A stretch of 64,000 nucleotides of DNA, taken from sequence record PP129558, one strand, 5' to 3'. This DNA is from Escherichia phage vB_EcoM_01. This document shows, in pieces, positions 1-17,509 of this stretch. Each line of letters starts with the position of its first letter. Positions within the stretch are counted from its first letter, which is position 1. The notes under the pieces are model-generated. The model saw nothing but the letters and a program-made list of their open reading frames with translations. It did not search any database and was not told where the DNA came from. Both the position numbers and the translations under genes were made by a program.

Positions 1-236
<236 letters not shown>

Positions 237-682
237 GATAAATAAGTGTTTGTGTGATTTATAATCAGGTGGCCCACCTTGTCGCTATGTTGGCATGAGC
301 CTTGCATAAGTCATTGAATACGAATGATAATTATTCTCATTCGCATGATATTTGGGAATTGTCGCTGCGTGGACCTGACGGCCCGAAAATTCGCGTTAAG
401 CACTTCTTACGTATGCGCCATGATTTTTGCCATATGATATTGATTCTATTAGATATTCTTGCCATGATTGCCATGAAACAGGGTGTCCCGAAATAATCTC
501 TCCCCGTGGATATTTTGGGTTACTTTTTATACAAGAGTGGGGTGTCAAAAATAATCGGTATATATGGGATAATTGATAGGAATCCCCTATGATAATTCGA
601 TTGTAATTCCTTAAGATTGATCGTATGATGTTGGTGATTGATGATTGCCATGAAAGATGGCTAACGATGAGAGGAGATTATC
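237..682 (+). promoter_or_regulatory. Non-coding leader with repeated ATGATTGCCATGAAA-type motifs upstream of the first gene
   Basis: 15-nt motif at 464-478 and 641-655, related copies at 417-438 and 459-470; no ORF with RBS. Confidence 0.35.
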
Positions 683-1057
683 ATGCAAGAGAGTAAAAAT
701 GTTCCGTTGAGTAGTGCAACATTACTTCGCTTCTATAAAGCATGGATTGCCAACTATCCTGCAATGAATCGCACAACGAGTGGCTTATGTGGTTGTCTGG
801 TAGATTATGTAAATGATTTTGTTGGTGAGACACCTAGAGAAGAAGATAGAAAATGGCGTGATCATTTGTTGGACCGTTTGAAATATGAAATGAGGAAACA
901 ATTTACATGTGCAGGGCTGGACTACAATCTTCCGTTCAATGTGGATTGCATGGATTACCTTTCAGAGTGTATAAACTTGGCGTGTCATACCAACACGTTA
1001 CGTCTTCAGTGGGTGAAAGATCGGATTGAAGATGCAAATAATGCTTGCATTGAATAA
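683..1057 (+). CDS. Hypothetical protein; member of 5-copy paralog family (GLCxCL ... GL..PF ... RxxWVKxR)
   Basis: GAGGAG RBS; motifs shared with ORFs at 4886, 8106, 11403, 12708. Confidence 0.5.
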   Translation: MQESKNVPLSSATLLRFYKAWIANYPAMNRTTSGLCGCLVDYVNDFVGETPREEDRKWRDHLLDRLKYEMRKQFTCAGLDYNLPFNVDCMDYLSECINLACHTNTLRLQWVKDRIEDANNACIE

Positions 1058-1106
1058 AGATGTTTGTATAATGGATGACATAACAGATAGCCAATGAGGA
1101 GATGAA

Positions 1107-1316
1107 ATGAAGAATTTGAAAACTGTCACAATGTTCTTGACTGATCCTACACGTGTGCAAGCACTGGCTAAAGCCAGCCGTGTAGCTGTAGAATTCCAAA
1201 ACTTTAAGCCGTCCGTTGTGACAGGCAGTGAAACGTGTGTTATCGATTTCATTAACGAATACTTCCGAGGGAATCCGGTTGGTCGTTACTTTATTAAGGG
1301 TCTGAAGGATGCATAA
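1107..1316 (+). CDS. Hypothetical protein
   Basis: ORF with GAGGAG RBS. Confidence 0.4.
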   Translation: MKNLKTVTMFLTDPTRVQALAKASRVAVEFQNFKPSVVTGSETCVIDFINEYFRGNPVGRYFIKGLKDA

Positions 1317-1539
1317 TATGAAACGCATGAAAATTCGTATTGAGAATGATGGTGGTTATAAAGGATTGGCACATGCAAAATTTCCACTTGTGTTGGAAGC
1401 TACAGTGGAATACAGTGGGCTTGCTCATGTACGATTCTCGAAGATGATGGAAGTGCAGGAATGGTTTTGGGACGAGATAGATGCACGAGAAGGGGAAGAT
1501 TATGTTTTCTTTCCTCATGAATATAACATTGTTTATTAA
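1309..1539 (+). CDS. Hypothetical protein; C-terminal W-F-W-D-E-I-D...DYVFFPHEYNIV motif shared with ORF 5596..5817
   Basis: ORF; paralog similarity read by eye. Confidence 0.4.
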   Translation: MHNMKRMKIRIENDGGYKGLAHAKFPLVLEATVEYSGLAHVRFSKMMEVQEWFWDEIDAREGEDYVFFPHEYNIVY

Positions 1540-1542
1540 AGG

Positions 1543-1791
1543 TTGTGTGCAATGATCACACCACAACAGAACGCAGCAGCAATGGATCTTCTTGATAGTT
1601 TGTATTTCGATAATTGGTACTCTGAATGTGAATGGATGAATATGCAAACTCTGAAAGAGAAGACAGAAGCGTTGATTACAGTAGATCAATTTCTTGCAGA
1701 GACGGAAAGAATGAATTATGATATGGCATCTCGCGCACGACGCGTTTCCATTTTCAATAAAATGTTAGCATTATGGGGAGGTAGAAAATGA
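1543..1791 (+). CDS. Hypothetical protein
   Basis: ORF in dense same-strand array. Confidence 0.4.
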   Translation: MCAMITPQQNAAAMDLLDSLYFDNWYSECEWMNMQTLKEKTEALITVDQFLAETERMNYDMASRARRVSIFNKMLALWGGRK

Positions 1792-2249
1792 GACAATTCA
1801 CTGTACTGGCAGCTTATGTGCAATGTGTTCACGACTATGTTAGTGCTCATACAGGTGTGCTGGAAGTTACCAGTAAAATTGAAGGTAATATGGGTACTGT
1901 CTGTGTGCAACATACTTTATCCAATGTACCGTTTAAAGTGTTCACTGTTGTAGCTGCCGATTACAATCGTGTAGATGTGCGTTTCTTGGATCATAATTTT
2001 CGTAACGCGCTAGATAATATCGAAGATTATCTTCCCGTGAAACCTTTGTCATTTCCACCAAATCGTGCAAATAATGTAGTGACAAATCTTAATGAAAGGA
2101 ATGTGGCTATGCACAAAAAAGTCCGTCAACTGAAAACGCTGATGGAAATGCAAGAAGAGATTGAAAAAGAACTGAAAGAAGATTTTGGTATGCTTCCAAA
2201 AGACGCTTTGAAATGGTATGATGAGTTAGGAGGAGAGAACAATGTTTAA
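1788..2249 (+). CDS. Hypothetical protein
   Basis: ORF, GGAGG RBS, start overlaps upstream stop. Confidence 0.45.
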   Translation: MRQFTVLAAYVQCVHDYVSAHTGVLEVTSKIEGNMGTVCVQHTLSNVPFKVFTVVAADYNRVDVRFLDHNFRNALDNIEDYLPVKPLSFPPNRANNVVTNLNERNVAMHKKVRQLKTLMEMQEEIEKELKEDFGMLPKDALKWYDELGGENNV

Positions 2250-2691
2250 AGAAGGTCATGTTTACCGTTTCCAGGATGAAGATTATATGCGACTATATTC
2301 TACCTTTGATAACAGTATTGCTGCTATCATCGGAGAGAATTTTTTCGAGGTGTTGAGCACTGATGCAAATGGTAATATCTTGTCAATGGTTGTGATAGGT
2401 ATGAGGGACGGTATTATCACTGCTGGCGATGGGGATCGTTACATAATCAATTCTGCTCATATAGATTATTTTGTTGACGGCGGTGGTCGTGGAAAACCCC
2501 AAGAAGAGCCTGTTGATACAACAAAAGAAGAGTGGTATGTTGTAATGACTGGTGACACCTGTATCTCTGGATCTCAAAGTTATGAAGAAGCTTTGAAAGA
2601 AGCAGCAGAGCATAAAATGACTAATCCTACAGAAGAGGTTGAAGTTTATAAACGTTTGGTTGTTGCTACCATCGGCGTATCTTTTGTTTAA
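2242..2691 (+). CDS. Hypothetical protein
   Basis: ORF with AGGAGGAG RBS. Confidence 0.45.
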   Translation: MFKEGHVYRFQDEDYMRLYSTFDNSIAAIIGENFFEVLSTDANGNILSMVVIGMRDGIITAGDGDRYIINSAHIDYFVDGGGRGKPQEEPVDTTKEEWYVVMTGDTCISGSQSYEEALKEAAEHKMTNPTEEVEVYKRLVVATIGVSFV

Positions 2692-2703
2692 AAGGGGNNT
2701 NTT

Positions 2704-3141
2704 ATGTTNAAAGCTAATGCTGTTTACTGTTTCAAAAGTAAAGCTGCCTGTGAAGCTTTCTCTGTGATCTCGGATGAAAATTTCAAAATGGCAGCTTTGA
2801 TTGAAGGGTCTTGTTTTCGCGTCGAAGATGTTAGTGAATCAGGGTCTGTTTGCTCATTGACTTTATTGGACAGCGGGGATATTATTGAAGCTGGACAGTA
2901 TCCGTTCAGAAGTTGGGAGATATTGTTAGCTCGCGGAGAGCGTAACTTTTTTATGTGCGTGTCTGCGGGGGAAGTTGTGAAAGAAACTAAGGATGTTTCT
3001 GTTTACAATTCTGAATTTATAAGTTATAGTGAGTATCAACATCTGGAAGGCATTGTTGGTCACTTGTTATCTCTGATTGACATTGAATGTGACCTTCCTG
3101 AATCATTGAAAGAAGAGTTGAAAGCATTAGATCTGCTGTAA
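2704..3141 (+). CDS. Hypothetical protein (ambiguous bases near start)
   Basis: ORF; N bases at 2698-2709. Confidence 0.4.
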   Translation: MXKANAVYCFKSKAACEAFSVISDENFKMAALIEGSCFRVEDVSESGSVCSLTLLDSGDIIEAGQYPFRSWEILLARGERNFFMCVSAGEVVKETKDVSVYNSEFISYSEYQHLEGIVGHLLSLIDIECDLPESLKEELKALDLL

Positions 3142-3168
3142 TGTTTCGCACAACGAAAGGAGAATAAG

Positions 3169-3468
3169 ATGAATCTGACTGAACAGTTACGCCGTATTGC
3201 AAAAGAAGCTTCCTTCAACTTCCCTGTTGAAGAAGTGATCGAGACATGTTTTGCTGAAGCACGAGCGGGAAACTCTTCAAGAAATTTCACGCCATCTGAT
3301 TTTGGTCTGGATAATTCCCCTACCCACCCAGGGGCGATCTACAATCAGGTGAAGTGGATGGATGAAGCAGTAGCAATTCTTCGTGAGCGTGGGCTTATTG
3401 TTTATAAAGAAATGGATTTGAACGGGGCATACGAGTGGATCACTATTGATTGGTCGGAGGTGAAATAA
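3169..3468 (+). CDS. Hypothetical protein
   Basis: ORF with AAGGAG RBS. Confidence 0.45.
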   Translation: MNLTEQLRRIAKEASFNFPVEEVIETCFAEARAGNSSRNFTPSDFGLDNSPTHPGAIYNQVKWMDEAVAILRERGLIVYKEMDLNGAYEWITIDWSEVK

Positions 3469-3677
3469 TGGTTACTATCACATTGACAGTTACACAAGAG
3501 CAAGCAGAAGAATTACGTGATGCACTGGCATATATGGGACGCGCTTATTATATGCCTCACAAATCTCAAGATGTTTTTGCTACAGCCGTTGAGAAAGCTT
3601 TAAATAAATACCAAGAAACTCATGCCGTTCCTAAAGTATCAGCGGAAGAGTTTGGCACTTGGCACGAAGTTCACTGA
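3450..3677 (+). CDS. Hypothetical protein
   Basis: ORF with GGAGG RBS. Confidence 0.4.
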   Translation: MVGGEIMVTITLTVTQEQAEELRDALAYMGRAYYMPHKSQDVFATAVEKALNKYQETHAVPKVSAEEFGTWHEVH

Positions 3678-3687
3678 GGAGGTTTCG

Positions 3688-3921
3688 ATGAAAGGTAACA
3701 AGATGAAAGTTAATCAAGTGCCGAGCGCATACACTTTGTGGCTTGCACGAGCGTTACACCAGACGATCAAAAACCCTAAGAAGCCAATGAAGAGCGGGAA
3801 GAAGTTTATGTCTAAGGGCAAAACAACCTTTGGCTTCACTCGTATGTCTGTTAAGATGAAAAGACTGGGGTACAAGCCAAACTACGCTCGTTACCCTTCT
3901 GAATACAACTGGTTTGACTAA
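3688..3921 (+). CDS. Hypothetical Lys-rich basic protein
   Basis: ATG at 3688 preceded by GAGGAGG; table ORF 3622 trimmed to RBS-supported start. Confidence 0.4.
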   Translation: MKGNKMKVNQVPSAYTLWLARALHQTIKNPKKPMKSGKKFMSKGKTTFGFTRMSVKMKRLGYKPNYARYPSEYNWFD

Positions 3922-4019
3922 AAGGAGGAAGATTATGGCTACTTTTCAACAACTGAAAGATGTTTCACGTTTAGTAAGAAAAATCCGAGAAGCAGACGCT
4001 GCTGCTGTCTCTTATACAN

Positions 4020-4609
4020 NNNNNNNNNNNNNNNNNNNNNNNNNNNNNNNNNNNNNNNNNNNNNNNNNNNNNNNNNNNNNNNNNNNNNNNNNNNNNNNNN
4101 NNNNNNNNNNNNNNNNNNNNNNNNNNNNNNNNNNNNNNNNNNNNNNNNNNNNNNNNNNNNNNNNNNNNNNNNNNNNNNNNNNNNNNNNNNNNNNNNNNNN
4201 NNNNNNNNNNNNNNNNNNNNNNNNNNNNNNNNNNNNNNNNNNNNNNNNNNNNNNNNNNNNNNNNNNNNNNNNNNNNNNNNNNNNNNNNNNNNNNNNNNNN
4301 NNNNNNNNNNNNNNNNNNNNNNNNNNNNNNNNNNNNNNNNNNNNNNNNNNNNNNNNNNNNNNNNNNNNNNNNNNNNNNNNNNNNNNNNNNNNNNNNNNNN
4401 NNNNNNNNNNNNNNNNNNNNNNNNNNNNNNNNNNNNNNNNNNNNNNNNNNNNNNNNNNNNNNNNNNNNNNNNNNNNNNNNNNNNNNNNNNNNNNNNNNNN
4501 NNNNNNNNNNNNNNNNNNNNNNNNNNNNNNNNNNNNNNNNNNNNNNNNNNNNNNNNNNNNNNNNNNNNNNNNNNNNNNNNNNNNNNNNNNNNNNNNNNNN
4601 NNNNNNNNN
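4020..4609. other. Assembly gap (N run) with duplicated flanks and adapter remnants
   Basis: 3856-4006 repeats at 4630-4780; CTGTCTCTTATACA at 4007-4018 and ACACCACGTCTG at 4610-4621. Confidence 0.8.
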
Positions 4610-4708
4610 ACACCACGTCTGTTGTNNAGATGAAAAGACTGGGGTACAAGCCAAACTACGCTCGTTACCCTTCTGAATACAACTGGTTTGACTAAAAGGA
4701 GGAAGATT

Positions 4709-4885
4709 ATGGCTACTTTTCAACAACTGAAAGATGTTTCACGTTTAGTAAGAAAAATCCGAGAAGCAGACGCTGCTGTGCGGAATGCACTAACGCCAGC
4801 AGAGCGTGAAGATCTTGAAGAGGAGGTGAAAACAGCCGAGAATGCTTTTGCTGCGTATCTTTCAACACTGTATACAGGAGGTTAA
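4709..4885 (+). CDS. Hypothetical protein (5' end also present in duplicated flank at 3935)
   Basis: AAGGAGGAAG RBS then ATG; 59 aa. Confidence 0.4.
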   Translation: MATFQQLKDVSRLVRKIREADAAVRNALTPAEREDLEEEVKTAENAFAAYLSTLYTGG

Positions 4886-5200
4886 ATGTCAGAGGAACTT
4901 AAAGAATTTTATCAGGTATATCATAACTGGCTATTAGCTGGTGCTCCAGATAATAATCCTTTCTGGCATGATAAAGGGTTATGTAGCTGCCTATATCTTT
5001 GGTCTGGTGGTTATGATGACCTAAATTATGAAATGCAAATGCAATTCCGCGAAGCAGGTTTGTCTGAAGAATACCCGTTTGATGATGGGGATTGGTTTAA
5101 ATATGATTTTGCACAAAGAAACGGGCTGCTACATTTGAATGCTGCTCGTATAAAATGGGTAAAAGATCATGCCACACAGGAGGATGTGCAATGCCTATAG
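4886..5200 (+). CDS. Hypothetical protein; paralog family member (GLCSCL ... GLSEEYPF ... RIKWVKD)
   Basis: ORF with AGGAGG RBS; family motifs. Confidence 0.5.
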   Translation: MSEELKEFYQVYHNWLLAGAPDNNPFWHDKGLCSCLYLWSGGYDDLNYEMQMQFREAGLSEEYPFDDGDWFKYDFAQRNGLLHLNAARIKWVKDHATQEDVQCL

Positions 5201-5391
5201 TGTTTGTTTTCTTGGCAATTGTTATGGTGGTTCTTTTCGCTGCATGGCTTTGGGATTTTGACCCAGGAGCCGCGCAGCAAAGAGCTACAGACTTGAAAGA
5301 ACAATGTATTGTGCTCAAACATGAACGAAATGCGGAGAAATTTCTTGACCTGGAGTGTGATCGCCTTGTAAGATACAAGCAAGATAAATAA
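5191..5391 (+). CDS. Hypothetical small membrane protein
   Basis: Hydrophobic N-terminus IVFVFLAIVMVVLFAAWLW; AGGAGG RBS. Confidence 0.35.
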   Translation: MPIVFVFLAIVMVVLFAAWLWDFDPGAAQQRATDLKEQCIVLKHERNAEKFLDLECDRLVRYKQDK

Positions 5392-5405
5392 CCTTGAGGT
5401 GCAAA

Positions 5406-5594
5406 ATGGTAATTGAGATTAAACTTGAACATGCTGGGGCTGTTGCCTTGATCGCACAAATGCTTGGAGCAAAGATTGAAGAAGTGTATATCAACGCCTG
5501 GAGCGTAGAGATTGATGTTCCTATGGACAACATTGCTAATCGCTTGCTGGTGGCAGAGTGTGAACGCACCAACATAATCTACAAAGGAGCATAA
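5406..5594 (+). CDS. Hypothetical protein
   Basis: ORF with GAGGTG RBS. Confidence 0.35.
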   Translation: MVIEIKLEHAGAVALIAQMLGAKIEEVYINAWSVEIDVPMDNIANRLLVAECERTNIIYKGA

Positions 5595-5595
5595 T

Positions 5596-5817
5596 ATGAA
5601 AATTAGAGTTTGTGATGTATTGGGTTATGTTGGTTTTGAGAATGTTCAGATTCCTTTTGTTGTTGAAGCACATCTTGTTAGTGAGGATATGACAACATTC
5701 TTTGTTACGATAGAAGAAATGTCCAAAGTTGAGGGATGGGAGTGGTTTGAAGAAGATGTTTGGGAAGGTTGTGATTACGTATTTTTCTCTGACGAAGTGA
5801 ATGTTCTTGCGGAGTAG
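5596..5817 (+). CDS. Hypothetical protein; C-terminal DYVFF motif paralog of ORF 1309
   Basis: ORF with AAGGAG RBS. Confidence 0.4.
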   Translation: MKIRVCDVLGYVGFENVQIPFVVEAHLVSEDMTTFFVTIEEMSKVEGWEWFEEDVWEGCDYVFFSDEVNVLAE

Positions 5818-5819
5818 GT

Positions 5820-6026
5820 ATGTCTTGTTTTACAAAAGCAGTATCCATATGTAAGAAACAGTATGAAAGTGATTACGGAATATTTAATATTCCAGTAGAT
5901 CATACAGTGTATTGTTCATGTGGTAGCAGAATGAAGAAAACAGTGATTTATGCGGATAATGGAGATGAACTTGTTCCAGTTATGGTTTGCAAAGCTTGTC
6001 ATTCTGTTAAAACATTAAAAGCGTAA
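5820..6026 (+). CDS. Hypothetical small Cys-rich (zinc-ribbon-like) protein
   Basis: CSCGS ... CKACHS spacing. Confidence 0.4.
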   Translation: MSCFTKAVSICKKQYESDYGIFNIPVDHTVYCSCGSRMKKTVIYADNGDELVPVMVCKACHSVKTLKA

Positions 6027-6121
6027 GGAGTCGGGACACCCGACGATTGGAGCTAAAAATTTTGCGTACAACCCTTTCCGCCCAACAGGGGCGCGTCGGG
6101 TAAATAAAGAGGAGAGTTTAT

Positions 6122-6520
6122 ATGAAAAAGATCATTGTAGGTTTATTGCTACTCGTTGCATCACTTGGAACAGCAAATGCGTCTCAAGTTTATGAGTGTG
6201 TGTCAGATGTGGTTGTTAAAAATCTGAAAGGTGAAGTGATTTCTGGTCCTAAGAAAATGGCTTCTGTTGTCATTAATAAAGATAACTCCTTTATCCTTAA
6301 AAATTCAGGTGGTGCTTTGATGAGTGGCATTCTGCAATACACAGGAGAAAAAAGTAAAGATGGTAGTGCTATGTACGGTTCACAACAATTTATTGGCACT
6401 ACTGAAGTAGTAATGATGCGCACAGAGTATCGAGACACTTTGGCTTGGTTTGCATTTCTAAAAAATGATAAAACAATAACGAATGTTCTTACTCTAGAAG
6501 CTGATTGTACGCAACGATAA
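6122..6520 (+). CDS. Hypothetical secreted protein with N-terminal signal peptide
   Basis: MKKIIVGLLLLVASLGTANA signal-like N-terminus; GAGGAG RBS. Confidence 0.5.
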   Translation: MKKIIVGLLLLVASLGTANASQVYECVSDVVVKNLKGEVISGPKKMASVVINKDNSFILKNSGGALMSGILQYTGEKSKDGSAMYGSQQFIGTTEVVMMRTEYRDTLAWFAFLKNDKTITNVLTLEADCTQR

Positions 6521-6529
6521 GGGGGATTT

Positions 6530-6976
6530 ATGACTAAAATGAGACATTACGCTGTAAACTGCAACGATGTTTGGCGTTTGTGTCCTGATGATCCGACAGA
6601 AGGCACATTTGTAAGATATGAGGATTATAAAGAGTTATCGGATGCTGTAGTCGCATTGTTAACAGATATCCGTTCACGTTATCCAGGACAAGATTTCACT
6701 TGCCCTCACATCAAACTTCTTGCCCTTCTGGTAGAAGGTGAGAAAGAAGTGGAAGATGGCTTCAAGCGTGTAGAGTATCAAGGTGAAACTTTAGAGGTTC
6801 CTGAATTTGTTAATTATATTGCAACAGATTCGAGTGGCGAGCGTTATGGCTACAGCCATAAGCCAGAGATTCCTGATTGGATTCCCGCTTGGAGATATTC
6901 CGTTAGTACCGGAGACTATATCTTCCTTGGTGTAGGTAGTAGTAAGGATTGGCGTTTCTCTTTGACAGAGGTTTAA
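6530..6976 (+). CDS. Hypothetical protein
   Basis: ORF with GGGGG RBS. Confidence 0.45.
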   Translation: MTKMRHYAVNCNDVWRLCPDDPTEGTFVRYEDYKELSDAVVALLTDIRSRYPGQDFTCPHIKLLALLVEGEKEVEDGFKRVEYQGETLEVPEFVNYIATDSSGERYGYSHKPEIPDWIPAWRYSVSTGDYIFLGVGSSKDWRFSLTEV

Positions 6977-6980
6977 TAAT

Positions 6981-7244
6981 ATGAAAGAGACATTGCCAGC
7001 AGCATACCGTTTGAATGATGAACGTATTTGGGAGTGGACCGACGTTTCTTGTTTTTACCCTGAAATAGTTCAATATTGGCGAGCAAAAGGGTGTGTTGTA
7101 GTTATCAACCCTTGTGGACCAGTGGATGAAGATTGCTTGTATCTCGATGGAAAGTGGCACAGTTATTGTCGCTGGCCTTTTGAGTGGATGTGTAAAGAAG
7201 ATCTCCCAGAGGGTTGGGAGTATCCAAAAGCAAATAGGAGATAA
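6981..7244 (+). CDS. Hypothetical protein
   Basis: ORF. Confidence 0.4.
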   Translation: MKETLPAAYRLNDERIWEWTDVSCFYPEIVQYWRAKGCVVVINPCGPVDEDCLYLDGKWHSYCRWPFEWMCKEDLPEGWEYPKANRR

Positions 7245-7245
7245 T

Positions 7246-7608
7246 ATGTCTAAAGATTTTGTTGAAGTGTTTGTCAAAGATGAAGAAACTGGTTTAGGCA
7301 CGGGTTTCATTTGTGAAGAAACTTTTAAACGTGAACAAGAAAAAGCTATCCTTATGCGAAACTATGATCATGCATTAGAACAATGGAAAAATGCAGAACA
7401 AAAATGCAAAAACCTTTATGCAGAAAATAGAAAACTACAAGATCAAATGGAGTTGTTAGCTATCAGTTTACGATCTCTCATTTTGGCTGTAGAAGACGGT
7501 TTTAAAAATCCAGATGGTTTTCCTGTGAGCGATATTGAACATGATTTGTATCTTGCTCGTGGTGCTTACTTTTATGTTAAACAGAAGTCTGTAGAAGGAG
7601 AGAAGTGA
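7246..7608 (+). CDS. Hypothetical protein
   Basis: ATG at 7246 after GGAGA RBS; table ORF 7114 trimmed. Confidence 0.45.
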   Translation: MSKDFVEVFVKDEETGLGTGFICEETFKREQEKAILMRNYDHALEQWKNAEQKCKNLYAENRKLQDQMELLAISLRSLILAVEDGFKNPDGFPVSDIEHDLYLARGAYFYVKQKSVEGEK

Positions 7609-7805
7609 TGGAAGAAAAACTGGAACGTATTATCGAGTTAGCCATGTCTATTGGCTACGACGATTGTTTTCTCCAAACTATTGGAGAAACACAGAACGAT
7701 TACGACTCTTGGGTGAAAGAGTTGGAAGAACTCAAAACTTCCTTGATTGCTGACTTTGCTGAAGCCGAGGATAAAGCAGATCGTTACAACTATCTGTGTC
7801 GATAA
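7608..7805 (+). CDS. Hypothetical protein
   Basis: ORF with GAAGGAGAG RBS. Confidence 0.4.
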   Translation: MEEKLERIIELAMSIGYDDCFLQTIGETQNDYDSWVKELEELKTSLIADFAEAEDKADRYNYLCR

Positions 7806-7808
7806 ACC

Positions 7809-7836
7809 TTGACATTTATTTTATGTATGGTATACA
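7809..7836 (+). promoter_or_regulatory. Sigma70-like promoter (TTGACA-N16-TATACA)
   Basis: Consensus -35 with AT-rich -10 upstream of gene 7868. Confidence 0.45.
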
Positions 7837-7867
7837 TACATTATCAACGTGAGCAAGGTGGTGTAAT

Positions 7868-8140
7868 ATGAATAAAGATCGGTTTCTTTCTTTAGTCGCG
7901 GAAGCTCCTTTTGATGTTCTTGGGGTGAGATTATGGAAAGACAGAAACTATGGGTTAGATGTTCAAACATACTCTCTTTGGTTGGTTGGGGAGCACAGCT
8001 TAGATGAAAGCTTGTGCATGGGTAGGGATTCTCGTTCCCTCTGTTTAAAGTTCAGAAGCTTAGAACGCGCAAACAAAGAGCAAGAAAAACTAACGAGGTG
8101 GCTAAATGAAAACAAGCACAAGGTTGATGGAGTTTTATAA
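7868..8140 (+). CDS. Hypothetical protein
   Basis: ORF downstream of promoter. Confidence 0.4.
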   Translation: MNKDRFLSLVAEAPFDVLGVRLWKDRNYGLDVQTYSLWLVGEHSLDESLCMGRDSRSLCLKFRSLERANKEQEKLTRWLNENKHKVDGVL

Positions 8141-8432
8141 AATTTATCTAGCATGGATTGATGTTGGTGCTCCTGATGGTAAACCTTTTCGGCGGGATTG
8201 TGGTTTGTGTGCCAACTTGTTCGATTATGTGCACAGAGGTAATTACAACCCCATTATAACAACCTTGTCAGATGAAATGCACGCACAGTTTTACCACAAA
8301 GGGTTGAGTCAAGCACTCCCTTTCAATGAGAACTACGATGCATATATCTTAGAATCAGATGCAGAGGTATGTCACCTGAACGTGGACAGGATTAATTGGG
8401 TAAGAGATCGTATTGCAGAGGAGGATGAATAA
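8106..8432 (+). CDS. Hypothetical protein; paralog family member (GLCANL ... GLSQALPF ... RINWVRDR)
   Basis: ORF; family motifs. Confidence 0.5.
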   Translation: MKTSTRLMEFYKIYLAWIDVGAPDGKPFRRDCGLCANLFDYVHRGNYNPIITTLSDEMHAQFYHKGLSQALPFNENYDAYILESDAEVCHLNVDRINWVRDRIAEEDE

Positions 8433-8659
8433 TGTCGGATTATAACTGGTATGAACTTGAGGCTGTTTGTCAGTTTTATGACTCAATAGTTCTGCGTGAT
8501 CCAATCTGTCAAGAATTGAGTCGCCGTGCAAGTGCATTGGCAATCCGTGTTAAAATAAACGGTTGGAACGCAGATTTGGAAAAAGAGTTGGAATTTCTCT
8601 TAGAAAACACGCGGGTCTTCCGCAAAGTGTTCCCTGAATGGTTTGAGATGGAAGAATGA
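8432..8659 (+). CDS. Hypothetical protein
   Basis: ORF with GAGGAGG RBS. Confidence 0.4.
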   Translation: MSDYNWYELEAVCQFYDSIVLRDPICQELSRRASALAIRVKINGWNADLEKELEFLLENTRVFRKVFPEWFEMEE

Positions 8660-8877
8660 TCATGTGGATTGTGCGTCTTAAGTATGATGGCCCTAATCCT
8701 TGGGTGAGAACAGTTTGCGGATGTGATACTAAAGAGTCAGCAGATAAAGCTGGAAGAATGATAAGTGCCTTTTATAATAGTAAACCTCTTTGTTTAGAAA
8801 TGTCTGGTGTGGTTTGTATGAGCATGTTCGAATACTACTCTTATGAGATCAAAGAACACCAAGGGGAATGGAAATAA
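8656..8877 (+). CDS. Hypothetical protein
   Basis: ORF overlapping upstream stop. Confidence 0.4.
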   Translation: MIMWIVRLKYDGPNPWVRTVCGCDTKESADKAGRMISAFYNSKPLCLEMSGVVCMSMFEYYSYEIKEHQGEWK

Positions 8878-8881
8878 ATAG

Positions 8882-8910
8882 TTGACAGAAGGATCTGTCT
8901 TTGTCATAAT
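8882..8910 (+). promoter_or_regulatory. Sigma70-like promoter (TTGACA-N17-CATAAT)
   Basis: Motif upstream of gene 8940. Confidence 0.45.
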
Positions 8911-8939
8911 CATCTCATCGAAACAAAGAGGAGAAAATC

Positions 8940-9395
8940 ATGAAAAAATTTATTTGCACCCGTTCCACTAACAGTGATATCCTTGTAGGTAAGGTTATCA
9001 AAGGAGAACTCTTCCATGCAAACGGTAAGAAATATATTCTGCTGAAAGATTCTTTCAACGGGGAATATCCGCGCTGCACTTTCTTCAATTACAACACTCC
9101 ATTTGCTTTAGAAGGAGATGCTTGGGACTGGGCTGAACTTCATCCTTTCTGTGAAGATGGACAGACAGAAGAGCAGGAAGAATCTACGGGAAGTTTACGT
9201 GATAAACTGCGTAATAAAGCACTGCAAGCAAATTCCCATTTTACTGAAATGGTAGACGCCGTTCTATTAGAGANNNAAGANNGNGCAAATGTTGTAGCTA
9301 CAATGCTACGTGCAAAAGGTTTGGATGTAACATTGGCAACCGCAGAGCACAGTATTTTTGGGATTATCAAACACATCGTTATTAGTTGGAACTAA
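8940..9395 (+). CDS. Hypothetical protein (contains ambiguous bases)
   Basis: ORF with GAGGAG RBS. Confidence 0.45.
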   Translation: MKKFICTRSTNSDILVGKVIKGELFHANGKKYILLKDSFNGEYPRCTFFNYNTPFALEGDAWDWAELHPFCEDGQTEEQEESTGSLRDKLRNKALQANSHFTEMVDAVLLEXXXXANVVATMLRAKGLDVTLATAEHSIFGIIKHIVISWN

Positions 9396-9405
9396 AGGAG
9401 AGAAT

Positions 9406-9705
9406 ATGCAAGTTGAAGACCTGATCCACATTCTGAATAAAGCTAAAGAGAAGGGTGCTATCAAAGACTGGAAACGTGAAACAAGTGAAGATTTATCTCA
9501 TTGTTGCCGAGAGTTTTACATCGAAGGTATTGCTAACGATCATTATACTATCGAATGGTATATCAACTTAATGACCCTTAAGCACGGTTCGTTTGAGGTT
9601 TGGTTTGATGACATTGATGTAAATGGTTTTCATCCTGGCTATAAAATCGCTATGCAGTTATCTTATCGTAGAGAAGTTGTAGCACATTTGGGTTTACATA
9701 ACTAA
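9406..9705 (+). CDS. Hypothetical protein
   Basis: ATG at 9406 after AAAGGAGAG; table ORF 9358 trimmed. Confidence 0.4.
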   Translation: MQVEDLIHILNKAKEKGAIKDWKRETSEDLSHCCREFYIEGIANDHYTIEWYINLMTLKHGSFEVWFDDIDVNGFHPGYKIAMQLSYRREVVAHLGLHN

Positions 9706-9715
9706 GGAGAAAAGA

Positions 9716-10039
9716 ATGCAAGCAGTTGTTAACGAAGCTATTATGAACTTATCCTTCTTGTTGGCTGGTTTAGGAGGTGTTCTCATAGGTTTGGCTCTTA
9801 TCTGGTGTATTCGTCGATTAATCGGGTACCGACAAAAAGGTGTTTCATGTTTTGTATCTTACAATTTTACAACTGCTTACAGCAATGAGGTTGGATCTGG
9901 CAATGCTCAAGCATTTTTACCAACATATCCTCCTACGGTGGAAGATATTCGAAACTTGGAAGTAGAACTTATGGGACTAAGTGATAACTATACATCTCTA
10001 GTTATTCAAAATATTTTTCGACTAAAACAGGAGGCGTGA
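9716..10039 (+). CDS. Hypothetical membrane protein
   Basis: Hydrophobic segment LSFLLAGLGGVLIGLALIWCI; AAGGAG RBS. Confidence 0.4.
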   Translation: MQAVVNEAIMNLSFLLAGLGGVLIGLALIWCIRRLIGYRQKGVSCFVSYNFTTAYSNEVGSGNAQAFLPTYPPTVEDIRNLEVELMGLSDNYTSLVIQNIFRLKQEA

Positions 10040-10252
10040 ATGAAGGTACATTACCCTCATCCCTTTGATCCTAAAAACAAAGCCGTAATTCTTCGTCAGT
10101 GGCAACGGGTTTGTCGTACTAAATGTCCAATCAATAGCCCACACAATGTAGACAAGGACTATCTTGGGACATTTGTTGAATACACTTACATAGACAAAAA
10201 CAAGCGTAAACAACATGTCGAGGAATACTGCTTAAGAGTAGAATGGCTGTAA
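10040..10252 (+). CDS. Hypothetical protein
   Basis: ORF with AGGAGG RBS. Confidence 0.4.
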   Translation: MKVHYPHPFDPKNKAVILRQWQRVCRTKCPINSPHNVDKDYLGTFVEYTYIDKNKRKQHVEEYCLRVEWL

Positions 10253-10264
10253 ATAATAAATACC

Positions 10265-10293
10265 TTGACAAGTGTTTATTCGTTTTGTAAAGT
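10265..10293 (+). promoter_or_regulatory. Sigma70-like promoter (TTGACA-N17-TAAAGT)
   Basis: Motif upstream of recombinase gene. Confidence 0.45.
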
Positions 10294-10322
10294 GAGAATA
10301 CAGCAATGGTTTAGGAGTGGTT

Positions 10323-10994
10323 ATGAAAAAGTTTGTTGTTTACAGTCGTCTTTCTAAACAGAAAAAAGGTGAGGCACAATATGGTATGGAGAGCCAAGAG
10401 AATGATATCCGTTACTTCTTAGACTCTGTGCCTGATGCGGAAGTTATTGGTCAATTTTCTGAATACTATTCGGGTAAGGGCGATTGGAAGCAACGTAAGG
10501 AACTGGTTAAAGCGGTTGAAATGTGTAAAGCTACCGGAGCAACTTTATTGGTAGCTAAAGTTGACCGCTTGGGTCGTAACAACGCCTCCGTAGCAACTCT
10601 TCTAGAAATGATTGATGTTAAGATAGCCATCATGCCAGACGCAGATAAAATGGTTATACAGCTTCTGTCTGTTCTGGCTGAACAAGAAGTTAGAGGTATT
10701 GCTGATCGTATTAAAAAGGGGCTTGCTGTAGCAAAAAGCAAAGGTGTTTTATTAGGCAGTGCTAATCCTAAAACTGCCGCTGCACGTAGAAAAGGAAAAA
10801 TGGAATACAACTCTGTTAAAGCAGACGCTTTTGCAGAGACATTCCGTGAACGCTTGGAGATCCTTAGAGATTTAAATACACCTTACAAAACTATTGCTGA
10901 AAAATTCAATAGTAAGAAAATAGCAACAGCACGTGGTGGTAAATGGGATGCTAAAACTGTTTCTCGTTTGTGTGCCAGACTGAACATTAAATAG
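10323..10994 (+). CDS. Small serine recombinase (resolvase/invertase family) with C-terminal DNA-binding region
   Basis: N-terminal YSRLSKQ (candidate catalytic Ser) and VDRLGRN motifs typical of resolvase catalytic domain. Confidence 0.6.
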   Translation: MKKFVVYSRLSKQKKGEAQYGMESQENDIRYFLDSVPDAEVIGQFSEYYSGKGDWKQRKELVKAVEMCKATGATLLVAKVDRLGRNNASVATLLEMIDVKIAIMPDADKMVIQLLSVLAEQEVRGIADRIKKGLAVAKSKGVLLGSANPKTAAARRKGKMEYNSVKADAFAETFRERLEILRDLNTPYKTIAEKFNSKKIATARGGKWDAKTVSRLCARLNIK

Positions 10995-11002
10995 GAGAGG
11001 AT

Positions 11003-11413
11003 ATGAAACAAGAAAATGAATCTATAGATCACTTAATCATGCTGTCAGCCCTTTTTGCCGGATGGGACGTATTTTTTGAAAATTTGTTCAATTCTGCTAC
11101 AGATGGTTCCGATTTTATGCGCCAGTTTAAACGACGAACTGTTGAGGACTATGCTTTCTATTCAGGTCGGATTGAAAAAGGTTACGAAGATACAAATACA
11201 ACACTCACCATTAAAGTTTTAGATGTGATGTTTAGTGTTATAGATGCTATCGACGAAAGTCTTCCGATCCTAGATAATTGTAATACGAAAGCCTATGTTT
11301 ACAAAATAGCTCGTGCTTATGTGTCTGCAAACAGTTGTCTTCTTTCCACCCAAATTGCGGTGAACAATCTTGCCAACTTGTTCGATGAAGGAGAAACTTT
11401 TTATGACAATTGA
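11003..11413 (+). CDS. Hypothetical protein
   Basis: ORF with AGGAGAGG RBS. Confidence 0.4.
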   Translation: MKQENESIDHLIMLSALFAGWDVFFENLFNSATDGSDFMRQFKRRTVEDYAFYSGRIEKGYEDTNTTLTIKVLDVMFSVIDAIDESLPILDNCNTKAYVYKIARAYVSANSCLLSTQIAVNNLANLFDEGETFYDN

Positions 11414-11768
11414 TTTGAAGTGTAAGAGGATTCTTTTAGATTTCTATAATAATTGGTTAGAACACCTCCGTCTCTTTCCACGAGAAAGTGGTTACGCTGA
11501 TGTTGGCTTATGCCGAGGTCTACGTATGTATATAAGTGATGAATTTCGAGCCGATCATTCTTTAGCATATTCTGTTTATGGTATGCAATTAGCCAGTTTT
11601 GAAAATGCTGGTTTAGATACAACTTTCCCGTTTAACACAGCAAAATCTTTTGAGCAAGAGTGTAAGGAAAAACGTTGCATGTTTAATGAAAAACGTGTAC
11701 AGTGGGTTAAGGAGCGAGTTAAACAACTGGAACAAGAGTTAGATTTCTTCTATGATGAGGCAGAATAA
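11403..11768 (+). CDS. Hypothetical protein; paralog family member (GLCRGL ... GLDTTFPF ... RVQWVKER)
   Basis: ORF; family motifs. Confidence 0.5.
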   Translation: MTIDLKCKRILLDFYNNWLEHLRLFPRESGYADVGLCRGLRMYISDEFRADHSLAYSVYGMQLASFENAGLDTTFPFNTAKSFEQECKEKRCMFNEKRVQWVKERVKQLEQELDFFYDEAE

Positions 11769-12040
11769 TGGATAGACAAACCTTAAAAACAATGGCAGAT
11801 GCCACTAATTCCCCGTACTTTGAAAAAGTAAGTAAATTGGTAGCTCAAGCCGCAGAGGAAGGATATTATAACATAAACATCCACAACCCAAGTCTTATAC
11901 TAGAAATGCCAAGTGATAAGAAGATACAAGAGAGTATCTGTGAAGGTATTGTTAGTTATTGGCGCGAGCGTGGGTGTGGTGCAAACATGGCTTTAGACAG
12001 TGCAAACATTGTAAGATATATAAATATTTCTTGGGGGTGA
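11768..12040 (+). CDS. Hypothetical protein
   Basis: ORF. Confidence 0.4.
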   Translation: MDRQTLKTMADATNSPYFEKVSKLVAQAAEEGYYNINIHNPSLILEMPSDKKIQESICEGIVSYWRERGCGANMALDSANIVRYINISWG

Positions 12041-12044
12041 TTTT

Positions 12045-12656
12045 ATGATTCAATGCACTCATATCCAAATTACTTGGAGAGATGAACTTTACCATTTAGG
12101 ACAATTTACTGTAGGGGAAACATACCCTGTCATTAAACATAATCCTAACATCGCAAACTTTGACAGGATGGTTCTTGTTGAGGACGATTTAGGTCAAACT
12201 TATTCTTTAGATCTAAAATATCCGTTTTCTTACGGCTACGATTGGATCGTTACTTTTGAAGACGTGGAGGAAAATAAAGCAATGAACGAAAAAAATTCTT
12301 GGTATTATCGTTGTGAACTGCCGCCAGTAGGCGAAAAGGTTATCTTTGTTCCTGATTTGGAAAGATATTCTTGGGACAGTTCTTATTCTGTTCCTAAAGA
12401 AGGCACCGAAGTTGAAGTTATTGCACATCGCACAACTTCGCATGGTAACGATGTAGCAGTTGTTTTCTGGGATGATGAAGGCGCTGCTTGTGCAGGTGGC
12501 TTTGTTGCAGGTAATTTTGAACCCCTGCCAGATCCTTTGAAGGAGGCAATTTTAGGCGTAGCTTCTTTTGGACTCTCTTACACATCTGCACAAGAGATCG
12601 TAGAAGGTATTTTAAACGGTACCGTTCCAAACGAAATTTTTAAACAGATTAAATAA
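12045..12656 (+). CDS. Hypothetical protein
   Basis: ORF with GGGGGTG RBS. Confidence 0.45.
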   Translation: MIQCTHIQITWRDELYHLGQFTVGETYPVIKHNPNIANFDRMVLVEDDLGQTYSLDLKYPFSYGYDWIVTFEDVEENKAMNEKNSWYYRCELPPVGEKVIFVPDLERYSWDSSYSVPKEGTEVEVIAHRTTSHGNDVAVVFWDDEGAACAGGFVAGNFEPLPDPLKEAILGVASFGLSYTSAQEIVEGILNGTVPNEIFKQIK

Positions 12657-12661
12657 TAATT

Positions 12662-12690
12662 GCACCCCGTTCTGCGGGGTGTTATTGTAT
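12662..12690 (+). terminator. Rho-independent terminator-like hairpin (CACCCCG-TTCT-GCGGGGTG + T-rich)
   Basis: GC stem then TTATTGTAT directly after stop of gene 12045. Confidence 0.5.
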
Positions 12691-12707
12691 ACGTAAAGGA
12701 GGCGCTA

Positions 12708-13046
12708 ATGTATTACACTGAAGACTACATATTGTATAACTTTTTTAAAGGCTGGTTGGAATGGGCGGAAAAAGCTCCTGTTGGAGATTGTGTTTTTCCT
12801 TGGGACTCTCGTCAAGGTTTGTGTCGTTGTTTGGAAGACTGGCTTATAACCACAAGCTACAATTCAGAGACTAAGAAATCTACATCAAAGAGACTAAAAA
12901 TGTTATTTGAAGAAGATGGTTTAGATCCGATTTATCCTTTCGGTGCTGAAAGCTTCCACAATGGTCTTTTTCTTGGCACTCAACATTATGACAAAGATCG
13001 CGTAGATTGGGTAAAAGAAAAGGTAGCACAGTATGAATGGGGCTAA
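12708..13046 (+). CDS. Hypothetical protein; paralog family member (GLCRCL ... GLDPIYPF ... RVDWVKEK)
   Basis: ATG at 12708 after AAAGGAGG; family motifs. Confidence 0.5.
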   Translation: MYYTEDYILYNFFKGWLEWAEKAPVGDCVFPWDSRQGLCRCLEDWLITTSYNSETKKSTSKRLKMLFEEDGLDPIYPFGAESFHNGLFLGTQHYDKDRVDWVKEKVAQYEWG

Positions 13047-13236
13047 GACTTATCATCGTTGGTTAGAAAGTTATATTAAGAAATGTGAACTTGGTGTTCC
13101 AGGCTATACTTACGACACGGACGAGATTCTTGATGAAATGGAAGTTTGGTTTAAAGAGCCTCGTGAACTATTGGAAAACATTCTAATGGCTTGGGATGGT
13201 ACGGCACAAAGCATTGAAGGAGGTAGAAATGAGTAA
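13033..13236 (+). CDS. Hypothetical protein
   Basis: ORF, weak RBS. Confidence 0.35.
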   Translation: MNGAKTYHRWLESYIKKCELGVPGYTYDTDEILDEMEVWFKEPRELLENILMAWDGTAQSIEGGRNE

Positions 13237-13365
13237 GAAATTGTTTAATATTCGTGAGAACCGTGATGGATCGTTCTCTGTAGTCAATGAGTTTAACGTT
13301 TCGGTTGGGACTTTTATTACTAAACGTCAAGCAGAACAAGTAAGAGATACTTTAAACAAGTAAAT
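13229..13365 (+). CDS. Hypothetical small protein (44 aa)
   Basis: ATG after GAAGGAGG RBS. Confidence 0.3.
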
Positions 13366-13380
13366 TTTTAAGGGGGACTT

Positions 13381-13800
13381 ATGTTAGGTAAGATCAAAGC
13401 TTTTTTCAAACGTATTGTTGAAGGAAGTCCAACAGAAGGTGCATTAGGAAGATCTCTAACAGGAGAACCACTTGCCATAATTTCTATCAGTCGGCATGGT
13501 GGATATTCCATTCGACAAACACCTTTAGGTATAGAAGGTAGTATGCTTTCTTGGACAATATCTCAAGTTGGTGATAACAGACTTGCAGCTATAGCGTTAC
13601 TTCGTGGGGAGTATGACCACTGTTTATCAGCATCTTGTAAGAAGCACCTCATAGAGCACATTAGAGACAGAGTAGAAAGAGAAGGCGGATACTTCTTCGA
13701 AACTAAGAGAAACGAACAAGGAACTCTTGACTTCACTAAGGTTTACTGGGACAATCATACTCGTCAAACTGTTGAACAACTTCTGGAGGAAAGATGTTAA
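13381..13800 (+). CDS. Hypothetical protein
   Basis: ORF with AGGGGGA RBS. Confidence 0.45.
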   Translation: MLGKIKAFFKRIVEGSPTEGALGRSLTGEPLAIISISRHGGYSIRQTPLGIEGSMLSWTISQVGDNRLAAIALLRGEYDHCLSASCKKHLIEHIRDRVEREGGYFFETKRNEQGTLDFTKVYWDNHTRQTVEQLLEERC

Positions 13801-14003
13801 AAGCTTTTGCTGTATACTCTACTGTAGGATTCTTTTATTGGATTATAGTTGTTGTTGGATGTTGGTTGGGTTCTTCTGTTGTGATGGGAGAATGGTTAAC
13901 ATACAATGTATTTGAATGGGATGTAGTTTGTAGATCATTGCTTGTTATATGGACTGCTATTGTTTGTTGGATAACTGTTAGTCTAACATTAGATCTATAT
14001 TGA
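13794..14003 (+). CDS. Hypothetical small membrane protein
   Basis: Two hydrophobic segments. Confidence 0.35.
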   Translation: MLKAFAVYSTVGFFYWIIVVVGCWLGSSVVMGEWLTYNVFEWDVVCRSLLVIWTAIVCWITVSLTLDLY

Positions 14004-17480: not shown

Positions 17481-17509
17481 AAAGGCACCCACTTGGGTGC
17501 CTTTGTTTT
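17481..17509. terminator. Terminator-like hairpin at strand switch (GGCACCC-ACTT-GGGTGCC + T-rich)
   Basis: Between convergent genes. Confidence 0.5.

Follow-up and report, generated by a model that had tools for sequence, protein, structure and literature searches.

A dispersed family of small, predicted five-helix proteins in the plus-strand small-gene block of a phAPEC8-like Escherichia phage

We analysed a 64,000-nucleotide stretch of Escherichia phage vB_EcoM_01 (sequence record PP129558; the window, hereafter) and a set of five small, related genes that lie on its plus strand between positions 683 and 13,046. By megablast the window belongs to Phapecoctavirus, the phAPEC8-like E. coli myophages of the Stephanstirmvirinae. 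When positions 5000-14000 were compared with a phage collection, 62 records matched with at least 80% query cover at 95-99% identity, nearly all of them Phapecoctavirus, and the best match was 536P1 (98.9%). The five genes sit in a plus-strand block of ∼17.5 kb that contains about 50 small open reading frames (ORFs) and is closed by a bidirectional terminator (Table 1). GC skew and gene orientation flip together at ∼17.5 kb and flip back near 55-56 kb. A preliminary description of this DNA, made from its letters alone, had listed five plus-strand ORFs here as dispersed, diverged members of one paralogous family. All five ORFs are present at the starts given there. A good Shine-Dalgarno sequence precedes every ATG, and the starts agree with the annotation of phAPEC8.

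The five proteins are homologous far beyond chance, both by BLASTP and by profile. Pairwise BLASTP alignments run over nearly the full length at 22-40% identity (E values from 1.7e-22 to 5e-4), with paralogs 2 and 3 the most similar pair (40%, E 1.7e-22), so that the similarity extends well past the short motifs by which the family had been recognized. Profile hidden Markov models (HMMs) built from any four copies recovered the fifth at E values between 3.7e-14 and 2.3e-21 (48-72 bits), and the highest score among 500 shuffles of each left-out protein was 9.3 bits. Among the 665 six-frame ORFs of the window, no other ORF was reached by the leave-one-out HMMs at E≤100, and a sixth copy was found in the window neither by BLASTP nor by HMM scan. 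In an all-against-all comparison of the ∼50 plus-strand ORFs of the block, the five-copy family was dominant and the only other paralogy was a single pair of genes (1309-1539 and 5596-5817). A whole-length alignment of the five proteins has 17 invariant columns. Most of the ordered motif set proposed for them stands: F-Y/F..W near the N-terminus, G-L-C, G-L..P-F and R..W-V are invariant. The stricter wording, GLCxCL or GLCRxL followed by WVK in every copy, does not fit paralog 3, which reads GLCANL and WVRDR.

Table 1. The five family genes and associated features of the small-gene block, with expect values (E) and ratios of nonsynonymous to synonymous polymorphism (pN/pS) against four close relatives
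Feature	Position (strand)	Length (amino acids)	E, phrog_2510	E, leave-one-out HMM	pN/pS	Remarks
Paralog 1	683-1057 (+)	124	3e-25	3e-17	0.17	First gene of the small-gene block; Shine-Dalgarno gagaggag upstream of the ATG
Paralog 2	4886-5200 (+)	104	3.6e-28	1.2e-19	0.02	
Paralog 3	8106-8432 (+)	108	6.6e-32	2.3e-21	0.32	Copy nearest the family consensus; 35-nucleotide overlap with upstream ORF 7868-8140
Paralog 4	11403-11768 (+)	121	4e-26	2.5e-18	0.12	11-nucleotide overlap with upstream ORF 11003-11413; Shine-Dalgarno AAGGAG; ATG is the start of phAPEC8 gp214
Paralog 5	12708-13046 (+)	112	1.4e-26	3.7e-14	0.11	Most divergent copy; ATG is the start of phAPEC8 gp211
Empty site for an extra copy	8877-8940 (+)					phAPEC8 (gp219), Ro121lw and phiWec188 carry a copy there
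Best sigma-70-like match of the block	8882-8910 (+)					TTGACA-17-CATAAT with extended -10 TG; within the empty site
Terminator-like hairpin	12662-12682					5' of paralog 5
Bidirectional terminator	17481-17504					Perfect 10-bp stem; closes the plus-strand block

All five proteins match the PHROG cluster phrog_2510 over their full length (E 1e-25 to 1e-32), a cluster annotated as 'unknown function'. Weaker matches were obtained to phrog_6418 for all five and to phrog_27059 for four of the five. The phrog_2510 profile has 219 positions, the length of a two-domain member, whereas the window proteins span only positions ∼5-113 of it. The orthologs in phage nepoznato (nepoznato_135, _125, _113, _104 and _101), which are 94.6-100% identical in protein sequence to the window copies, all carry the pVOG tag VOG7392. 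By sequence, then, the five proteins are members of the PHROG 2510/pVOG VOG7392 family, and this family includes gp3 of phage N4 (EPNV4_gp03, NC_008720 1214-1528), which matches the family HMM at E 1.3e-23. The same HMM identified Ea9-2 gp07 and Sf12 gp18 as members and found none in phage T1 itself.

The family is large. An exhaustive profile search of 1.84 billion representative sequences returned 1,560 clusters (50% identity) at E≤1e-3, 558 of them at E≤1e-10. Most members are single domains of 100-125 amino acids; among the proteins that we fetched, 21 have two family domains and one has three. In two metagenomic relatives, P0090 and P0145, the two family domains are separated by an unassigned region of ∼120 amino acids. 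A third, P0121, carries an N-terminal DUF551, the only fusion partner identified, and has a Lys in place of the otherwise invariant Cys.

Searches for a named or characterised relative were negative throughout. Neither Pfam-A nor NCBIfam gave a match above the curated cut-off when the five proteins and 127 diverse members were scanned singly. In PADLOC-DB the sole match, of one protein to a PifA fragment (E 0.02, 11.5 bits), was at chance level. Two profiles searched against PDB sequences gave nothing meaningful, and protein homolog searches with two alignments returned only the name 'hypothetical protein'. Our literature search found no functional study of the phrog_2510/VOG7392 family, which is a cluster without function or name; its members appear in genome reports only as 'hypothetical protein' BLAST matches. 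No function is reported for N4 gp3 in the searchable literature, and no link could be established between the five-copy family and Dap2 of phage PaoP5.

Structure prediction gave a confident fold. The AlphaFold2 model of paralog 3 (predicted local distance difference test score, pLDDT, 92.9; predicted template modelling score, pTM, 0.85) consists of five helices, at residues 5-19, 34-43, 50-64, 77-85 and 93-107 as assigned by DSSP. The model of a two-domain member, P0037, is less confident in its second domain (pLDDT 73, pTM 0.59), and the alignment used for it covered domain 1 only. A Foldseek search of predicted viral structures with the family fold matched only uncharacterised phage proteins, and no similarity in fold or sequence to the solved phage anti-defence or host-takeover proteins was found. 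With no solved relative recovered by sequence or structure searches, the modelled fold is apparently new.

Conservation was scored in the 127 diverse members and in 200 family domains, with residues numbered as in paralog 3. Four residues, C35, P72, F73 and R95, are invariant among the 127 members and present in all five window copies. A further 11 residues are at least 90% conserved in the 127 members (L7, F10, Y11, G33, L34, Q61, F62, L67, N92, W98 and V99), and several polar residues are frequent in the 200 domains: E57 (81%), Y80 (81%), E83 (77%), N74 (72%) and H90 (72%). No repeat of the two- and three-domain fusions that we inspected, P0037 and P0040, has lost the Cys, the Pro-Phe pair or the Arg. 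The lone invariant Cys lies at the N-terminus of helix 2 and the invariant Arg at the start of helix 5. Because helical periodicity on the DSSP helices puts them on the hydrophobic sides of helices 2 and 5, C35, which shares a face with L38 and V42, and R95, between W98 and V99, probably point into the bundle; E57 and Q61 would lie on the flanking edge of helix 3.

The second Cys of the GLCxC motif (C37) and the Cys that precedes H90 (C89) are facultative and are not associated with each other (Fisher p = 0.87). Both are absent in 86/200 domains and 22/200 domains have a single Cys, indicating that the conserved Cys needs no disulfide or Cys partner and that a structural zinc or disulfide site is not a feature of the family. 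A zinc site of the form CxC...CH, as in a zinc-binding anti-sigma-like domain, was rejected on these counts. Two other candidates were set aside as well. The HEPN RNases have a four-helix fold whose last helix starts with an Rx4-6H motif, an arrangement that the family does not have. A DNA mimic is unsupported, the isoelectric points of the five proteins (4.5-5.4) being only mildly acidic.

The composition of the conserved Cys/Arg site makes a small thiol-dependent enzyme, or a binder of a small molecule or metal such as a host-signal sponge, a serious if doubtful alternative to a protein-binding role; the paralogs would then differ in substrate or ligand. For a helical domain of 100 amino acids it is unusually rich in conserved polar residues: beside the invariant Cys and Arg at the starts of their helices stand the near-invariant Gln61 and Asn92 and the frequent Glu57, Tyr80, Glu83 and His90. 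The polar-site residues are maintained in each repeat of the inspected fusions, and a Cys that requires no second Cys, as the single-Cys domains indicate, would suit such chemistry. However, the proteins match no enzyme or sponge in fold or sequence, His90 is replaced in ∼28% of domains (by Met in paralog 4), the DUF551-fused P0121 has dispensed with the Cys itself, and five to nine copies per genome would be unusual for a metabolic enzyme.

The family is spread over phages of very different kinds. A tblastn search with the paralog 3 protein found 255 phage records, all from phages of Proteobacteria. They include rV5-like and phAPEC8-like myophages, with matches at 2-8 places per genome; N4-like podophages (Achromobacter, Erwinia, Delftia and G7C-like); T1-like siphophages; T7-like and phiKMV-like phages (Ralstonia, Klebsiella and Burkholderia JG068); and Rhizobium phages, Acinetobacter phages and PhiW-14. 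The family gene of N4 and of Ea9-2 lies at the left genome end, before the RNAPII genes; the early genes of N4 are transcribed by the injected virion RNA polymerase (PMC4496689). In JG068 the early region contains the family member as gene 5 (PMC3765740). In Sf12 the gene is found among small genes that adjoin helicase and nuclease genes of replication and recombination. A single member was found on a plasmid record, NZ_CP148392.1 (5971-6450, 159 amino acids). This 92.8-kb non-mobilizable E. coli element carries Phd/Doc, dUTPase, DUF2829 and phage-like genes and is probably a phage-plasmid, so the family is not strictly confined to virulent phages. The best explanation of the sequence, structure and distribution data together is that the family is one widespread, phage-restricted set of small (∼100-125 amino acids), soluble, mildly acidic five-helix proteins.

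No neighbouring gene is common to the window block and the other phage contexts, apart from one weak match. The 203-amino-acid protein encoded just upstream of paralog 5 (12045-12656, plus strand) resembles an ORF of Sf12 (5970-6182; phmmer E 1e-4) that lies ∼700 bp downstream of the Sf12 family gene, and this similarity may be due to chance. The lack of a conserved partner gene suggests that the family gene moves and works as a stand-alone module. It also bears on whether the proteins serve the phage itself, as accessory factors of early-to-middle transcription, of replication or of DNA entry, which we consider decidedly unlikely. Such a role would agree with the position of N4 gp3, which immediately follows the RNAPII cofactors gp1 and gp2, with the replication and recombination genes around the Sf12 member and with a conservation of the orthologs that equals that of their neighbours. 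Yet the carriers (N4-, T7-, T1- and rV5-like phages) use unrelated strategies of transcription and replication, no neighbour gene is conserved among them, T1 itself lacks a member, and copy number varies among near-identical phages, as expected of accessory rather than core genes.

This variation is evident in the homologous blocks of six Phapecoctavirus genomes, which contain 5 copies (the window and nepoznato), 6 (536P1 and Ro121lw), 7 (phAPEC8) or 9 (phiWec188). Adjacent tandem copies are present in phAPEC8, 536P1 and phiWec188. Window positions 232-715 correspond to 1682-2165 of the phAPEC8 record (L001) and window positions 702-2510 to L001 2480-4288; the ∼315 bp between the tandem genes gp245 and gp244 of phAPEC8 are thus deleted in the window, and as a result paralog 1 begins like gp245 (first ∼33 nucleotides) and continues as gp244. 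A second indel leaves an empty site in the window where three relatives carry an extra copy (Table 1), with the alignment broken at window 8727/8871 and L001 9737/10187. The best sigma-70-like match of the block coincides exactly with this indel site.

The copies themselves are old. For each of the five, between 13 and 66 cluster representatives from outside the genome score higher than the best in-genome paralog does. Paralog 2 scores 72.8 bits against gp18 of the T1-like phage Sf12 (46% identity), equal to its score against the best in-genome paralog, and paralog 5 scores 49.3 bits against gp07 of the N4-like phage Ea9-2, compared with at most 42 bits against a paralog in its own genome. Judged by these scores, the five copies are ancient lineages, no nearer to one another than to the homologs of unrelated phages, and the copies of Phapecoctavirus appear to interleave with those of other phage families. 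All five genes are under purifying selection. Their pN/pS values (0.02-0.32, median 0.12) are indistinguishable from those of neighbouring genes (median 0.14; Mann-Whitney p = 0.86), and their synonymous divergence is higher, though not significantly so (p = 0.085). Purifying selection on all five implies that each copy is maintained.

A recent duplication within the genome, followed by rapid diversification, is therefore very unlikely. The tandem copies in three relatives, with the window deletion between them, and the many metagenomic variants of paralog 1 (50-90% identical, several sharing the N-terminus MQESKNVPLSS) are what it would predict. The in-genome paralogs, however, are only 22-40% identical and no closer to one another than to T1-like and N4-like homologs, and their pN/pS values are low. 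The repeated duplication and diversification inferred in the preliminary description holds in so far as gain and loss are ongoing, as the range of 5-9 copies and the tandem deletion indicate; the age of the copies and the purifying selection on them do not fit the rest of that account. The paralogs have long been present and each is maintained, with gain, loss and recombination still continuing; the pattern is not that of a recent burst of duplication and diversification. The notion that the genes are non-functional, either chance ORFs or decaying remnants, has their small size and missing annotation in its favour and nothing further; it is almost certainly wrong, being refuted by the profile matches, good ribosome binding sites, purifying selection, confident fold and conservation in hundreds of phages.

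What the proteins do can be proposed only in outline. The reading that we prefer, at somewhat less than an even chance, is that they form a panel of early accessory proteins that share a mode of engagement and apply it to different host targets, broadly in host takeover or anti-defence. Each copy would be a soluble, single-domain early protein that acts alone. Every copy would retain the internal site made up of Cys35 and Arg95, flanked by Glu57, Gln61, Tyr80, Glu83, His90 and Asn92, and the remaining surface would vary between paralogs. From a common internal site combined with paralog-specific surfaces it would follow that the same elementary act is carried out on different host targets. This act would be the binding, or the chemical engagement, of a common kind of ligand or partner early in infection. 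Copy number would be tuned as related phages gain, lose and recombine copies, with large virulent phages keeping several copies and small phages one. A role in host takeover or anti-defence, as the preliminary description had suggested, is plausible and is consistent with the position in the putative early block, with N4 gp3 and with the placement of members in the early regions of N4-like and T7-like phages. We regard as possible, if rather doubtful, the more specific proposal that the proteins represent a new early-effector fold in which a buried Cys/Arg site, as modelled, binds or modifies targets, with the 5-9 versions in a genome each neutralising a different defence or host factor.

Several observations weigh against a panel of early host-directed proteins. 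Database and structure searches found no homolog of known function and no structural neighbour that would support such an activity. A polar core conserved this strongly would be no less expected of an enzyme or a small-molecule binder than of a set of proteins that bind other proteins, and the invariant residues could be purely structural. In the orthologs we saw no signature of current diversifying selection or of an arms race, their pN/pS being like that of the neighbours. Many anti-defence genes are found in the leading regions of conjugative plasmids, and only 1 of 72,556 plasmids has a family member, which shows that the family is not part of that repertoire. The plus-strand small-gene block is read as an early region, and its timing in Phapecoctavirus is taken from layout only. 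The count of sigma-70-like matches (56) is not above that in shuffled sequence (46.4 ± 6.6), although the best of the matches lie between genes of the block.

The rest of the block offers few functional landmarks. Among the deposited relatives the only gene of the block annotated as anything but 'hypothetical' is a serine recombinase, and in profile searches the larger block proteins matched PHROGs of unknown function and one resolvase only. This recombinase gene (10317-10994, plus strand; Pfam Resolvase, E 5e-18) is found, in a virulent myophage, within the presumed early block; it is also conserved among the relatives, under the name of resolvase or serine recombinase. In phAPEC8, ∼1.5 kb without annotated genes (L001 625-2132) lie after a terminator and before the first family gene. 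Window positions 1-682 begin within the matching gene-free region, in which early promoters or cis elements of another kind may be located.

The only other paralogous pair of the block (1309-1539 and 5596-5817, plus strand) encodes proteins of ∼75 amino acids (phmmer E 4e-12) whose nepoznato orthologs are both tagged pVOG VOG6032. The two genes lie two to three genes downstream of paralogs 1 and 2, respectively, and this spacing hints at an old segmental duplication. At 3914-4885 the record contains a run of Ns (4019-4609) between two copies of one gene start, MTKRRKIMATFQQLKDVSRLVRKIREADAA..., at 3914 and at 4688-4885, and phAPEC8 L001 5616-5779 is matched twice around the run. The arrangement reflects a masked insertion or else a local duplication; at this place related phages have extra small genes.

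An uncharacterised paralog family in a 150-kb phage is not in itself surprising. Of the small phage proteins that lack a characterisation, however, this family is one of the more widespread, having no Pfam entry, solved structure or literature, and it is a well-defined target: it is present in multiple and variable copies in coliphages of the therapeutic type (phAPEC8-like and rV5-like), it occurs in early regions, and it has an invariant Cys and Arg. N4 gp3, the single-copy representative in a model phage, offers a tractable handle. Should the family prove to be an anti-defence or host-takeover module, thousands of hypothetical genes would gain an annotation and the result could bear on the host range of phages used in therapy. 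Should large virulent coliphages carry five to nine specialised effectors, the family would be a new and very widespread one in anti-defence or host takeover. Little would change if it turned out to be a structural oddity of early operons.

Among individual proteins, N4 gp3 is the closest point of reference. Like the window copies it is small (104 amino acids), with 51% local identity to paralog 1, and it lies at the early end of its genome. Unlike them it is present in a single copy, and the N4 early genes use the virion RNA polymerase rather than that of the host (PMC4496689). T7 Ocr and gp2, T4 AsiA and the Acb2-type sponges are likewise small, soluble, acidic, early, accessory and widely exchanged, a likeness of context and general properties only. 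Polyimmunity-type arrays consist of diversified small binding proteins, such as the SUKH-type immunity proteins. In contrast to these, the family is all-helical rather than alpha+beta, its copies are dispersed rather than arrayed, its polar core is conserved and it has no toxin partner; what it shares with SUKH-type polyimmunity is the presence of multiple diverged paralogs per genome and of tandem two- and three-domain fusions within the family.

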